Of a stretch of 57,021 nt of DNA, positions 20,003 through 25,452 are shown piece after piece. Numbering within the stretch: position 1 is the first letter of the stretch; each line of letters opens with the position of its first letter. The stretch is from Candidatus Saccharimonadota bacterium (lineage in GTDB: Bacteria > Patescibacteriota > Saccharimonadia > Saccharimonadales > JACDBH01). The notes beneath the pieces were generated by a model. That model was given only the letters and a program-made list of their open reading frames with translations, searched no databases and had not been told where the DNA came from. Location: contig JACDBH010000007.1 of assembly GCA_013694995.1 (NCBI GenBank), forward strand, positions 1 to 57,021. Reading direction: 5' to 3'. The position numbers were made by a program, and so were the translations under genes.

Positions 20003-20434
20003 TTAACCCCGACGGCGGCTTGAACGTTTGATGCCAGCTACTTGCAATCTTACTGAAGTGCGATCTATAAGGCTTTGGGCTTGGTCTAAGGACACTTGGT
20101 CTTTGGCTTCACTCTTAAGCTTCTTCGCACGCACGTACGCTGCTTTGGCTTCTTCTTCCGAGATTTCATCGGAATTATCTGCTTCATCAACGAGTACGCG
20201 CAAAGTATCGCCTGATACTTCAATCGCACCGCCCGATATAGCAAAAAGCTCCATCGAATCATCGCGGTCGTTAGCGTTACGGCGGACTGAAATAACACCG
20301 GCTTTTGCAACACTAATCAATGGCATATGTTTGGGCATTACTCCAATTTCACCATCCATTGTCGGTAAAATAACTTCATAGACATCTTCTGAAAACTTGA
20401 TGCCATCTAAACTTACCAATTCAAAATGAATCAT
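20003..20434 (-). CDS. atpC: ATP synthase F1 epsilon subunit
   Basis: FELVS.DG, LPT.DGEIGVMPKHMP, ISGG.IEV. Confidence 0.95.
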   Translation of the reverse strand: MIHFELVSLDGIKFSEDVYEVILPTMDGEIGVMPKHMPLISVAKAGVISVRRNANDRDDSMELFAISGGAIEVSGDTLRVLVDEADNSDEISEEEAKAAYVRAKKLKSEAKDQVSLDQAQSLIDRTSVRLQVAGIKRSSRRRG

Positions 20435-20697
20435 TATTCCTGAACACTATTAAAATTTAATTCTGGCTGCGGCTCCTCAAACAAGCTTAACTGCACCCCT
20501 GCAGGTACAACACTACTTTTACCCAGTGCTTCAGCTAATTTGAACTGCACATAAGGCTGTAATTCTTCTGCGGTAATAGCTATTTCAACAATATTACGAA
20601 GTGTGTCGTTAGATATTTCACGTTTAACTTCGTAAATAACCATATGACTTCCATCAGGTGTCGTCTTAATAATATCTACTGTCTCTGGCCAGGCCAT
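20434..20697 (-). CDS. Orphan protein between atpD and atpC
   Basis: 87 aa; TAATG stop/start overlaps at both ends. Confidence 0.8.
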   Translation of the reverse strand: MAWPETVDIIKTTPDGSHMVIYEVKREISNDTLRNIVEIAITAEELQPYVQFKLAEALGKSSVVPAGVQLSLFEEPQPELNFNSVQE

Positions 20698-22085
20698 TAT
20701 TTTTCTTCCTTTACTTCACTGATATTACCCTTCATATAAAACGCAGACTCTGGCTTGTCATCATGCTTGCCGTCAAGGATTTCACGAAAACCGGCAATTG
20801 TATCACTCAGCGAAACGTACTTTCCGGGTTTGCCGACAAAAACTTCTGCCACAAAGAACGGCTGGGTTAGAAAACGTTGGATACGGCGGGCACGCGAAAC
20901 TGTCATTTTATCTTCGTCACTCAATTCTTCCATGCCTAAAATCGCAATAATATCTTGTAGATCTTTATAACGCTGCAAGATTCGCTGGACTTCACGAGCT
21001 ACCTGGTAATGTTCTTCTCCGACGATTTCCGGGTCCAAAATAGTTGAGCTCGAATCAAGCGGGTCTACAGCAGGGTAGAGACCAAGTTCCGTAAGCGCAC
21101 GATTTAAAACTATGGTGGAGTCAAGGTGGGCAAAAGTCGTAGCAGGAGCTGGGTCAGTTAAGTCATCGGCTGGTACAAAAACAGCCTGTACCGACGTAAT
21201 CGAGCCCTTGCGGGTACTGGTAATCCGCTCTTGTAATGCACCCATTTCAGTTGCGAGATTTGGCTGGTAGCCGACGGCTGAAGGCAAGCGGCCAAGTAGA
21301 GCAGATACTTCAGCGCCTGCCTGGGTGAAGCGGAAAATATTGTCAATAAAAAGAAGCACGTCAGAGCCTTTATCGCGGAAACCTTCGGCAATGGTTAGGC
21401 CAGAAAGTGCAACGCGCAAACGAGCACCCGGTGGTTCGTTCATTTGCCCAAAGACAAGGCTAGTCTTATCAATTACGCCAGATTCTTTCATTTCGTAGTA
21501 CAGGTCGTTACCCTCGCGGGTACGCTCACCAACCCCTGCAAAAACAGAGAAGCCGCTATGAAACTTAGCAATATTGTTAATAAGCTCCTGGATTAGCACG
21601 GTTTTACCAACACCAGCTCCACCGAACAAGCCTACTTTGCCGCCTTTGGTCATTGGCGAAATAAGGTCTATGACTTTAATTCCAGTTTCAAGAATCTCAA
21701 CTCCACCTGACTGCTCAATAAATGCAGGTGGCGTGCGATGGATAGGAGATTGGTTCTTAAAAGTACCGCCCAGACCATCTATGGGATCGCCAGTGACATT
21801 GAACATACGTCCCAAGGTTTCTTCGCCAATCGGCACGCTAATCGGTGCACCAGTATCGATTATCCGCGCACCTCGTTCTAATCCATCAGTTGTTCCAAGT
21901 GCAATAGCCCGTACGCTACTTTCGCTTAAATGCTGTGCAACTTCAAATAATAGTTTTTGTCCGTTCAGTTCCAGTTCGAGTGCATTATAGATTGCCGGTA
22001 AATGACCTTCGCTAAAATCAACGTCAATCACAACTCCAACCACTTGACTGATTATGCCGTCTTTAGTTTTTTCTGCTATTGCCAT
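20697..22085 (-). CDS. atpD: ATP synthase F1 beta subunit
   Basis: [31 protein letters not shown]. Confidence 0.99.
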
Positions 22086-22087
22086 TA

Positions 22088-22761: not shown

Positions 22762-23627
22762 TTCATAGCCTCCGCGCCGCCGGTTATTTCTGCTAGTTCC
22801 TGCGTGATTTTGGCCTGGCGCGCGGTATTAAACTCGAGCGTCAAGTCATTAATGATATCTATCGCGTTGTCAGTGGCGTTTTTCATGCTCAGCATGCGCA
22901 TTGAATGCTCTGAAGCAATGCTCTCAAGCAGCGCTTGCCATAACTGGACCTCCAGTAAGCGTTCGGTAACATTTTCAAGTACTTCTTCTACTGACGGCTC
23001 GAATGTTACTTCATTTAGTGAAGTTTCTTCACTCGCTTCGCCCTCGAATAAAGCAGGCAATATTGATAAACTAAGTGCTTCTTGCAGAATATTAGATTTG
23101 TGCTCGGTGTAGAATAAACGAACTTCGTCAACTTTTTCTGTCCGGTATAACTCGACTATTGTATCTAGTATTGGGCGAATGTCATTGGCGGTTGGATGGT
23201 CGCCGAAATCAGAATATGCAGCAACTAGTTCAACACTTTCAATCCGGCGCAAGAACTGGGCGCCACGTTTGCCAAGGATTAATATCTGGCTTTTAACACT
23301 AGTCCTTCGGTCCTCTCTAACTGAGGAGGTCAGCATTTTTATAATATTCGCATTATAAGCACCAGCAAGCCCCCGGTCACTCGTAATAACTACGTAAAGC
23401 CGGTGTTTAATCGTGCGCTTACAATACAGTGGATGCTCGTTTATTTCTGTCACAGCTGCAAGACGGGATAGCATAGAATGAGCGGCCTCGCGATAAGCGC
23501 GACCACGTTGGGCGGCTTCAGTGGCCTTGCGCATTTTACTGGCTGCTACAAGCTCCATAGCTTTAGTAATCTGTTTGGTGTTTTTGACGCTGCCGATGCG
23601 GCGCTTAAGCTGCTGGGTACTAGCCAT
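22758..23627 (-). CDS. atpG: ATP synthase F1 gamma subunit
   Basis: ITKAMELVAASK, SDRGLAG, SEH..RM..M..ATDNA, RQAKITQEL.EI.GGA. Confidence 0.98.
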   Translation of the reverse strand: MASTQQLKRRIGSVKNTKQITKAMELVAASKMRKATEAAQRGRAYREAAHSMLSRLAAVTEINEHPLYCKRTIKHRLYVVITSDRGLAGAYNANIIKMLTSSVREDRRTSVKSQILILGKRGAQFLRRIESVELVAAYSDFGDHPTANDIRPILDTIVELYRTEKVDEVRLFYTEHKSNILQEALSLSILPALFEGEASEETSLNEVTFEPSVEEVLENVTERLLEVQLWQALLESIASEHSMRMLSMKNATDNAIDIINDLTLEFNTARQAKITQELAEITGGAEAMK

Positions 23628-23904
23628 TGTCTCGTTCGCTGACTGTGATTAAATGACGGCCCAGGGCGAGACCGATAGTAAGATCCCCTGCAGATGCTCG
23701 TAGTCTGTCGTAACGTCTATCAACCGCAATCGATGAAGCAACTAACGCAGGATATTCTATCCCCATATGATCTAACCCGAACGCTAGCCCTCCAATGCGT
23801 TCCGGTACGCCTCCTAAATCACATAATATTGAGACTGACGTACGGATATCGCTATCATCGATTTCTAATGAATAAGGTAATGCTAACTTCATAGTATCTA
23901 CCAT
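23620..23904 (-). CDS. Orphan protein between atpA and atpG
   Basis: 94 aa; ATG directly after the atpA stop; its stop overlaps the first atpG codons. Confidence 0.75.
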   Translation of the reverse strand: MVDTMKLALPYSLEIDDSDIRTSVSILCDLGGVPERIGGLAFGLDHMGIEYPALVASSIAVDRRYDRLRASAGDLTIGLALGRHLITVSERDNG

Positions 23905-25452
23905 TTATTTGGCTTCTTTCTCGACGGCTTTATAACTTTCGGCTATGTGGTGGGCGAGTCTAAGAATTTCTTGCTTATCTTTTTCTTCCGGTTCTTTGCC
24001 AGAATCAATATGGTTTACAAGCGTAGTGTGCTTGCTCTTGAGTTCTCGGAGCAGGGAACCCTCAGCGTTCTTAATTTTATTCACATCGACTTTATCGAAT
24101 GCTCCCTCTGTTGCCGCAAGTAACATTACATACATTTGCCAAGTGCTGTAGGGGCTGTACTGCGGCTGCTTTAAAAGTTCAGTCAGGCGCTGGCCGCGTT
24201 CAATACGAGCCTTAGTATCAGCATCTAAGTCAGTGGAGAACTGTGAGAAGCTAGCAAGTTCTCTGAATTGCGCCAGGTCAACCCGTAGGGATTTTGCTAC
24301 CGACTTAACGGCTTTGGTCTGCGCAGAACCACCGACACGGGAAACCGACAAACCGACAGATACAGCAGGGCGGATACCCTGGTAAAACAAGTTTGTTTCC
24401 ATAAATATCTGGCCGTCAGTAATGGAAATCACATTTGTTGGAATGTAGGCACTAATATCACCAGCCTGGGTTTCTATAATTGGCAAGGCAGTAAGTGAAC
24501 CAGCTCCAAGATCGTCACTTAATTTAGCGGCTCTTTCAAGTAACCGTGAATGTAGGTAGAAAACATCACCAGGATAAGCTTCACGTCCCGGCGGGCGACG
24601 AAGCAGCAGGGACATTTGGCGGTAGGCGGCGGCGTGCTTAGTTAAATCATCGTAAATGATAAGGGCATGCTGTTTGTTATCTCGGAAATATTCACCCATG
24701 GTTGCGCCAGCATAAGGCGCAAGGTACTGCATACTGGCAGGGTCAGCAGCAGAAGTCGCAATAATAATCGTTTGTTCCATCACGCCTTCGCGCTTTAAGC
24801 GCTCGACCAGACGGGCAATCTTGCTCATTTTCTGACCGATAGCGACATATATATTTATAACGCCAGTATTTTGCTTGTGCTGGTTAATCATTGTATCGAT
24901 GGCAACAGCGGTCTTGCCGGTCTGTCGGTCGCCAATTATAAGCTCACGCTGACCACGGCCAATTGGCACCATGGCATCAATTGCGATAATCCCCGTCATC
25001 AATGGCTCATGTACCGATTTACGTGCCAAAACGCCGGGGGCAATGCGCTCCGCCGGGCTTGTCTGCTTGGCTTTGATGGCGCCTTTGCCGTCCAGAGGAC
25101 GCCCCAGAGGGTCAACGACGCGGCCGACAAGCTCCGGCCCGACCGGGATTTCGACGATTTTACCAGTACGGTGAGCCTTGGTACCGGCCTTAACAAGAAC
25201 GTCTTCACCCAGCAGCACCGCTCCGATTTCTTCAGTACCTAAGTTGAACGCAAAAGCGGTTATTTTTGATCCGTCTTCGGCGTCAAGTTCGATCATTTCA
25301 TTATAACCCGCCGAAGTCAGCCCATAAATCCAGACAATACCGTCACCAACCCGGGTGATAATACCTGTCTCTTCGATTTCCGGGCGTTTCTTTAGCTCAT
25401 TAATAGCCGCCCTAATATCGGCGGAAAGGTCTGCAATAGATATATCTTTCAT
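23905..25452 (-). CDS. atpA: ATP synthase F1 alpha subunit
   Basis: [36 protein letters not shown]. Confidence 0.99.

Follow-up and report, generated by a model that had tools for sequence, protein, structure and literature searches.

Small, rapidly changing genes probably occupy three translationally coupled slots between the F1 subunit genes of a Saccharibacteria ATP synthase operon

Few gene orders in bacteria are as constant as atpA-atpG-atpD-atpC. The stretch of Candidatus Saccharimonadota DNA considered here (57,021 nucleotides of contig JACDBH010000007.1, called the window below, at its full length) interrupts it at every junction with small open reading frames (ORFs), which we name o94, o132, o91 and o87 after the lengths of their products in amino acids. 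What are these four ORFs, and on what terms do they sit between the genes for the alpha, gamma, beta and epsilon subunits of the F1 head? A preliminary description of this DNA had posed a choice between F1 regulators or assembly factors and slots that capture variable cargo, possibly by homologous recombination through the conserved flanks. On balance our analysis favors the slots: the four ORFs are probably fast-turnover accessory genes in three permissive, translationally coupled positions of the F1 gene block, at the atpA-atpG (A-G), atpG-atpD (G-D) and atpD-atpC (D-C) junctions. An F1-related role is nonetheless possible for the two families to which o91 and a domain of o132 belong, and the recombination route found no support.

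A complete F-type ATPase operon lies on the minus strand of the window at 20003-27925, with the genes atpI-like, atpB, atpE, atpF, atpH, atpA, atpG, atpD and atpC, and all eight canonical subunits (alpha, beta, gamma, delta, epsilon, a, b and c) are already present in it. Its F1 part reads atpA-o94-atpG-o132-o91-atpD-o87-atpC and is packed stop to start. The features are as follows.

23905..25452, minus strand: atpA (F1 alpha), the 5' flank of the A-G slot (ORF; tblastn identity of 67-91% to atpA of 37 relatives)
23620..23904, minus strand: o94, 94 amino acids, acidic, fills A-G (ORF)
22758..23627, minus strand: atpG (F1 gamma; Pfam PF00231, expectation value (E) 3.7e-89)
22363-22761, minus strand: o132, 132 amino acids, the whole ORF
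22591..22761, minus strand: o132 residues 1-57, acidic N-terminal extension (AlphaFold predicted local distance difference test (pLDDT) 60-72)
22363..22590, minus strand: o132 residues 58-132 and stop codon, small helical domain (T-P-A...E-x-N-R-H-H-R-A; AlphaFold pLDDT 89-98)
22088..22363, minus strand: o91, 91 amino acids, acidic four-helix protein (ORF, family alignment and predicted fold)
20697..22085, minus strand: atpD (F1 beta; ORF with 80-93% identity to atpD of relatives)
20434..20697, minus strand: o87, 87 amino acids, acidic, fills D-C, strict orphan (ORF)
20003..20434, minus strand: atpC (F1 epsilon; Pfam PF02823, E 5.9e-20)
25458..27925, minus strand: atpI-like, atpB, atpE, atpF and atpH, the compact Fo/stator part (ORFs; atpI-like is PF09527)

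The intergenic space amounts to 0-2 nucleotides at every border of an insert. The TAA of atpA is followed by the ATG of o94 with no spacer, the end of o94 overlaps the start of atpG by 8 nucleotides (ATGGCTAG), and atpG and o132 have an ATGA in common. The sequence TAATG is common to o132 and o91 and again to each of the pairs atpD/o87 and o87/atpC. Only at the o91/atpD border is there a spacer, of two nucleotides; since o91 ends ...GAAGGAGGTTAA at this distance from the atpD ATG, its last codons contain the GGAGG Shine-Dalgarno sequence of atpD. On re-reading the sequence we could confirm the coordinates and lengths that had been given for the four ORFs, the lack of intergenic space with its TAA-ATG, ATGA and TAATG borders, and the placement of the GGAGG of atpD in o91. 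The Fo/stator part of the same operon, which we used as an internal control for junction size, has gaps of -8, 18, 71, -1 and 5 nucleotides in the window.

By sequence criteria the four ORFs are genuine genes for small acidic proteins. A codon model derived from the 281 ORFs with 300 or more amino acids in the 766-kb genome gave in-frame scores of 0.41 for o87, 0.45 for o91, 0.30 for o132 and 0.20 for o94, and scores that were negative or near zero in their other frames. For reference, genuine 90-codon pieces scored 0.27 ± 0.11 and wrong frames -0.06 ± 0.12, with a 95th percentile of 0.137. The isoelectric points of the predicted proteins lie between 4.05 and 4.74 (o94, 4.74; o87, 4.45), so that what had been called mostly acidic holds for all four. 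The G+C content at third codon positions is 0.26-0.35 in the inserts versus 0.38-0.47 in the atp genes.

Signals that would mark the inserts as independent units were sought in the atp region and at the insert borders. Promoter-like sites (16, compared with 15.5 ± 3.4 in shuffled sequences) and terminator-like sites (6, compared with 8.4 ± 2.7) are not in excess. The borders carry no transposase and no direct, tandem or inverted repeats except for one match of 15 of 17 nucleotides between the starts of o91 and atpD, which is not significant by itself; the earlier remark that neither transposase nor repeats are visible therefore holds for the borders. A search of the 766-kb genome (blastn, word size 7, E ≤ 0.1) found no other DNA copies of the four inserts, and no paralogues of o132 or o94 were found in it. 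All four ORFs are thus single-copy, and they are not palindromic, with neither terminal inverted repeats nor self-complementarity.

This arrangement suggests how the inserts could be expressed. Having no room for signals of their own, they would be made from the atp transcript. Each would start where the preceding gene stops (TAA-ATG, ATGA or TAATG), by termination and reinitiation, and would pass the ribosome to the F1 gene that follows, the Shine-Dalgarno sequence of which would sit in the last codons of the insert. DNA landing in such a junction would survive only if it were translatable from the upstream stop to the downstream start, a condition that would preserve expression of the essential downstream subunit.

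The interruptions are not peculiar to this genome. We found atpG in 40 of 40 relatives searched, took the operon from 37 of them, and measured every junction, calling a junction expanded when it spans at least 120 nucleotides; the counts include the window, and two rows of the junction tables (L039 and L040) come from the unpublished genomes G015 and G002. Expanded junctions make up 71 of the 104 in the F1 part (A-G, 20 of 35; G-D, 31 of 36; D-C, 20 of 33) versus 15 of 148 in the Fo/stator part (I-B, 0 of 23; B-E, 1 of 30; E-F, 8 of 32; F-H, 2 of 31; H-A, 4 of 32). Of 333 ribosomal-cluster junctions (17 sites between L3 and S5, 20 relatives), which served as a control from outside the operon, 19 are expanded. 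At least one F1 junction is expanded in 32 of the 37 relatives, and the operon is fully compact in the other five (G014, G018, G021, G022 and G023). The two states occur even within one genus, g2, where G001 has inserts at A-G and G-D, and G014 and G018 are compact. The slots are a clade-wide feature of this Saccharibacteria order.

Nearly all of the slot content is open reading frame joined to both neighbors. The junctions contain from 0 to 4 ORFs, and sense ORFs tile at least 90% of 69 of the 71 expanded F1 junctions, compared with 6 of 71 on the antisense strand. Likewise, the longest ORF takes up a median fraction of 1.00 of an expanded F1 junction versus 0.37 for antisense and shuffled sequence.

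The F1 junctions are special but not unique in this respect. Expanded ribosomal junctions follow the same bridging rule, since 28 of the 34 that measure 60-320 nucleotides are bridged by an ORF that spans the whole distance between the stop of one gene and the start of the next, although two of these 28 are artifacts (an undetected L29 gene and a stretch containing N). The fusA-tuf, tuf-rpsJ and rpsJ-rplC gaps also vary among relatives. The fusA-tuf gap measures 117-666 nucleotides in the four relatives whose examined stretch includes both genes, and in the genome to which the window belongs a 96-amino-acid ORF begins at the fusA stop, ahead of tuf (G000:C4:286225-286515); tblastn found no relative of it in the ribosomal-cluster loci of 20 relatives. 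The rpsJ-rplC stretch of the same genome lies at about C4:288584-289669. Between the genes for L2 and S19 (rplB/rpsS), 4 of 20 relatives (G001, G011, G028 and G039, at L088, L093, L101 and L106) have a bridging ORF of 80-98 amino acids. The quinol/cytochrome oxidase operon of the window (3051-7328, minus strand; COX2, COX1, COX3 and COX4-cupredoxin) is compact, with gaps of -1, -28 and -4 and no inserted ORFs, so not every respiratory operon of this genome has slots. Just 3' of atpC, at 19632-19919 on the minus strand, lies a 95-amino-acid ORF that matches no Pfam family and is kept at this place, with 31-71% identity, in the stretches of 5 of 37 relatives (L040, L041, L042, L050 and L065, the first of them from an unpublished genome).

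The slots gain and lose genes, some of which shift from one junction to another, and the genes in them diverge very fast, so that the content keeps turning over. Of 93 junction ORFs with 40 or more amino acids, 66 are singletons (blastp, E ≤ 1e-3) and the other 27 form ten groups of two to four. One family occurs at D-C, D-C, G-D and A-G in four genomes. In the same genome pairs the nonsynonymous divergence (dN) is 0.35-0.93 for inserts versus 0.07-0.35 for atpG, a rate three to eight times higher; the pair L039/L040 was excluded, atpG being truncated there (atpG dN 0.80). Synonymous divergence (dS) is saturated in 11 of 16 insert pairs. Because inserts diverge fast and dS is mostly saturated, part of their apparent unrelatedness may be blurred orthology. 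The preliminary description had expected the same inserts across Saccharibacteria if they were subunits or regulators, and different inserts at the same junctions if these were cassette hotspots. The comparison falls mostly on the hotspot side, with its majority of singletons, a family at three junction types and five compact operons; an F1-related role is possible for the o91 and o132-domain families, which usually keep their place beside atpD and atpG.

Relatives of o91 were found in 10 of 400 other genomes of the order. They give a clean alignment in which motifs are kept across 11 sequences, and AlphaFold predicts a four-helix protein with a mean pLDDT of 80.5. A family profile found 10 of 300 other genomes, only one of them new beyond the single-sequence search, and a local form of the profile picked up the pre-atpD ORF of G008 (E 2.2e-5). 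Nine of the 12 relatives sit immediately ahead of atpD; three occur alone, among unrelated neighbors and far from atp. The C-terminal tail, which arises in the embedded copies from reading through the Shine-Dalgarno sequence of atpD, is missing from these three. A profile-profile comparison of nine junction-ORF families gave as its best pair the o91 family and an 89-amino-acid G-D family, at a probability of 24.7%, which we considered too weak for merging the two.

An exhaustive search of 1.84 billion representative proteins found 15 relatives of o132, of 64-167 amino acids, all aligning to residues 58-129 with 41-59% identity. The family has an invariant T-P-A near its start and a conserved E-x-N-R-H-H-R-A, and residues T61, P62, A63, A81, G89, E100 and H105 of the o132 domain are invariant. 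Because the domain starts at residue 2-3 in most of the relatives, o132 reads as this domain preceded by a 57-residue acidic N-terminal extension. A profile of the domain matched 1 of 400 other genomes. A scan of genome contigs found a single locus, L081, and one of metagenome contigs confirmed none. In all three known contexts (the window, L081 and G362) the domain follows atpG directly.

The protein o132 opens with 13 residues (MIH-SLDGI-F) that copy the beginning of atpC (MIHFELVSLDGIKF). In a gapped test of N-termini this match was the best of 351 comparisons, exceeded all 3510 shuffles, and was the only one to stand out. There is no general copying of the start of the next atp gene by inserts, as 0 of 351 comparisons had four of seven identical residues. 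The likeness between the o132 and atpC starts points to pieces having moved between junctions.

To judge from their conserved motifs, both the o91 family and the o132 domain are under constraint at the protein level. The ratio dN/dS, to which the preliminary description had looked for evidence of selection, adds one close pair at 0.09 (from G015 and G002), most dS values being saturated. Two recent copies within the genome G030 give 0.82 over 54 codons.

The other two ORFs are poorer in relatives. The sole, weak relative of o94 is the first A-G ORF of G012, a genome of the same taxonomic family, at the same junction (31% identity; E 0.003 per genome and 1.1e-5 among the 93 junction ORFs), and a search of 400 other genomes of the order gave two matches, both marginal. 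A protein Atlas lead to the thiamin pyrophosphokinase B1-binding domain (PF04265; feature score 0.94, 206 shared features) was rejected, as a six-frame search of the genome with that family model gave no match at E ≤ 10 and Pfam gave none for o94 at E ≤ 1. Against PDB sequences, phmmer returned for o94 at best NifN, with an E of 0.24. For o87, the Atlas held no usable match and the 400 genomes gave one match (E 0.003) inside a 1218-amino-acid frame, which we read as chance; o87 is without relatives in any search made. The Atlas models of both proteins are poor (pLDDT 0.38 for o94 and 0.44 for o87). Iterated profiles built from o94, o87 and o132 drew in no further junction ORFs.

None of the four ORFs gave a match at a useful level to Pfam, PHROGs, NCBIfam or PADLOC. 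Pfam at E ≤ 1 returned only an unrelated sub-threshold match of o91 (PF21379, E 0.21), in the same scan in which atpC, atpG and atpI-like matched their own families, and PHROGs gave sub-threshold matches only (E 0.016-0.24). No toxin, antitoxin or defense family was found in PADLOC (E ≤ 1) or Pfam; the well-known mobile or toxin families that the preliminary description had named as its possible undoing thus did not appear. In a word-indexed search of 5.8 billion proteins, o94, o87 and o91 each matched only themselves, a negative that is silent on distant relatives because the same search missed an o91 relative of 39% identity found by tblastn. Foldseek comparison of the o91 and o132 models with the PDB gave no match at E ≤ 0.001, and in a wide VIA-align comparison the best Z values, 5.4 and 5.3, did not reach the level of noise for helical models. 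In addition, the four ORFs do not match the Pfam models of canonical F-type subunits, and none is present in every genome that has an ATP synthase. Their products would be dispensable, lineage-restricted accessory proteins and not core subunits.

How DNA enters such junctions may be seen in relatives whose short junction inserts have the features of palindromic repeats (G017, G003, G008 and G030). In the ribosomal cluster of G017 (L096:302-6873), an element of 103-159 nucleotides occupies 12 of 13 ribosomal-protein junctions. Most copies consist of tandem repeats of roughly 7 nucleotides, a short loop and mirror repeats (for example L096:2838-2940), with z-scores of the minimum free energy (MFE) of folding from -1.0 to -4.9. 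The elements often begin at TAATG and end in the Shine-Dalgarno sequence of the next gene, and in 10 of the 12 a reading frame stays open all the way from the stop of the gene before to the start of the gene after. Elements of this type are included in the short atp-junction expansions of G017, G003 and G008 (L041, L032 and L037), and hairpin elements of 33-54 codons in the junctions of relatives stay open. Outside the window, the genome studied here has bridging mini-ORFs of the repeat-hairpin kind between larger genes, of 36 and 41 codons (G000:C7:89276-89386, folding z-score -4.9; G000:C4:302961-303086, -0.2).

A second element, in G030, is a palindrome of 158 nucleotides with 15-nucleotide terminal inverted repeats and an MFE of -63 kcal/mol. 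Five copies, four of them about 90% identical, occur in the 22 kb examined, at the atp G-D, atp D-C and ribosomal junctions (L052:5562-5719 and 7200-7357; L103:754-911, 5027-5169 and 11252-11398). Both atp copies and one ribosomal copy lie in frame within junction ORFs. A copy of 72% identity lies in the 5' part of a pilin-like 275-amino-acid ORF of the genome to which the window belongs (G000:C4:12733-12889).

Several explanations compete with that of fast-turnover accessory genes. The four products could be lineage-specific partners of F1, such as assembly chaperones, inhibitors or regulators of the alpha3-beta3-gamma-epsilon head, encoded beside their target subunit and evolving fast. The concentration of inserts at F1 junctions and the enrichment of homology within a junction type agree with this, as do the constant neighbors (the o132 domain after atpG in 3 of 3 contexts, o91 before atpD in 9 of 12) and the small, helical, acidic proteins with confident folds. 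Yet there is no general family (the o91 and o132-domain profiles match 10 of 300 and 1 of 400 genomes), five relatives have no insert at all, junctions hold anything from 0 to 4 ORFs, one family is spread over three junction types, and three o91 relatives stand alone far from atp. Moreover, the four ORFs match no known F1 regulator or chaperone in Pfam or NCBIfam, and the fold searches with the o91 and o132 models returned none. We regard this explanation as rather unlikely. It is distinctly improbable that the ORFs are bridging spacers or proto-genes with functionless peptides, selected only for translatability or for the 3:1:3:1 output of alpha, gamma, beta and epsilon. Tiling of the gaps end to end regardless of sequence is what spacers would produce, and the lack of relatives of o87 and near lack for o94, their poor Atlas models, the dN/dS of 0.82 in the recent G030 copies and the open hairpin elements of relatives point the same way. 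Against spacers stand the motifs and confident folds of o91 and the o132 domain, the close pair from G015 and G002 with its low dN/dS, and codon usage in all four that is as good as that of the atp genes.

The mechanism offered in the preliminary description, cassettes swapped between genomes by homologous recombination with conserved atpA, atpG, atpD and atpC flanks as arms, appears very improbable. Position-retaining lateral spread would fit the finding that rare insert families recur at one and the same junction in taxonomic families far apart within the order and are not seen in the 19 nearest genomes. However, identity in the 40 codons beside the junctions is not raised in the genomes that share insert families with the window (L081, L083, L054, L037 and L073-L080), where flank similarity near the junction is no more than overall genome distance predicts, and neither recombination sites nor repeats lie at the borders. 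Between genera the flanks are only about 55-77% identical as DNA, a level too low for efficient homologous recombination. Finally, that the ORFs are not genes, being chance frames in non-coding spacers or decayed atp fragments, is hardly credible. The want of clear relatives for o87 and o94 and the lower third-position G+C of the inserts would suit such an origin, but codon scores fall in the coding range in frame only for all four, the sense strand is tiled far beyond the antisense strand and the shuffles, and, apart from the first 13 residues of o132, tblastn finds nothing in them that resembles atp proteins.

Several observations weigh against accessory genes in permissive slots, the reading that we prefer. 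It leaves the preference for F1 junctions without explanation. Homology mostly respects position, with phmmer matches at E ≤ 0.01 in 26 of 1537 same-junction pairs compared with 5 of 2632 different-junction pairs, all five from the one family found at three junction types. The placement of the o132 domain after atpG and of o91 before atpD, together with the F1 preference, fits an F1-related function, or old vertical genes that have diverged, at least as well. For o94 and o87 themselves no estimate of selection was obtainable, dS being saturated for nearly all pairs. No RNA run containing this DNA was found, the sole matching run being a soil metagenome that is possibly its source, and translation and coupling are therefore inferred from the sequence alone. 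Against a purely vertical history, in turn, stand the 10 of 300 and 1 of 400 genomes reached by the o91 and o132-domain profiles, and these searches saw neither family in the 19 nearest genomes, although the local o91 profile does reach the pre-atpD ORF of G008. We lean towards non-essential passengers of a strongly expressed, essential operon.

A wider idea, which we consider doubtful, is that operon junctions of Saccharibacteria are a nursery for new protein genes. Small palindromic mobile elements would land on stop-start overlaps (TAATG, ATGA) and would be tolerated only if open from stop to start, the downstream essential gene depending on translational coupling; they would therefore be translated from arrival. 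Later on, such elements could lengthen, take over start modules from neighboring genes (in o132, perhaps that of atpC), change junction and now and then become folded, conserved proteins. If so, o87 and o94 would be recent arrivals and o91 and the o132 domain would have matured, with the F1 junctions as the most permissive cradle.

The finding bears on a whole order of ultra-small epibiotic bacteria with tight genomes, most species of which interrupt atpA-atpG-atpD-atpC with changeable small genes. In a full-text literature search, the listings and the beginnings of abstracts contained no description of small genes inside Saccharibacteria atp operons. Should the inserts be passengers, variable genes can be housed in an operon that is both essential and strongly expressed, provided that the insert stays translatable; the origin and persistence of orphan genes would then follow a concrete rule that can be tested. 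Should they instead be partners of F1, they would be new and very diverse regulators of ATP synthase in organisms about whose energy metabolism little is understood. In both cases two families without a name, that of o91 and that of the T-P-A...N-R-H-H-R-A domain, both of which fold confidently, are now defined together with a genomic address.

None of the known systems with which we compared the four ORFs accommodates them as a family. Accessory-gene hotspots, such as regions of genome plasticity and the phage genes known as morons, hold different small cargo at fixed positions between conserved neighbors. As in the atp slots, this cargo is gained and lost and often unrelated while the flanks stay. 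In contrast to such hotspots, the atp slots separate the subunit genes of a single enzyme within an essential operon; their inserts have no intergenic space and no promoter or terminator of their own, and overlap stop to start with both neighbors; and no recombinase gene or att-like repeat lies at their borders. The flanking promoter and terminator that characterize a moron are thus absent from them.

Small regulators and assembly factors of F1 include the C-terminal helices of epsilon, the alphaproteobacterial zeta subunit (DUF1476), mitochondrial IF1, cyanobacterial AtpTheta and the chaperones Atp11 and Atp12. The inserts resemble them in being small, largely helical and taxonomically restricted; here they lie beside F1 genes, two of the families with a fixed neighbor. 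However, Pfam gives no match for them at E ≤ 1, the fold searches with the o91 and o132 models returned none, their distribution is patchy, and the content of the slots differs between genera. Rickettsia palindromic elements are translated palindromic repeats, and like them the palindromic elements of the relatives G017 and G030 persist inside translated sequence. In contrast, the four ORFs of the window are single-copy and non-palindromic. This likeness bears on how DNA enters the junctions and not on what the four ORFs are at present.

Integron cassettes are promoter-less single-gene units in one orientation that are expressed from upstream, and the inserts are likewise promoter-less single-gene units, of unassigned function, in one orientation. 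However, no attC-like inverted repeats lie at their ends and no integrase lies beside the array; instead of being stacked, the inserts are interleaved with essential genes. The nearest recombinase genes, at 47217-48983 and 55216-56133, are more than 20 kb from the inserts. The window at 47217-56747 has the look of a mobile or defense cluster, with a large serine recombinase, a ResIII helicase with a weak TnsA-like end, an N6/N4 DNA methylase, a tyrosine integrase and a C-terminal fragment of MgsA. With taxonomically restricted (orphan) genes, the inserts share a narrow lineage, short length, fast evolution and a composition richer in A+T than that of their neighbors. What sets them apart from orphan genes is their address, which across the whole order is confined to three junctions of one operon.

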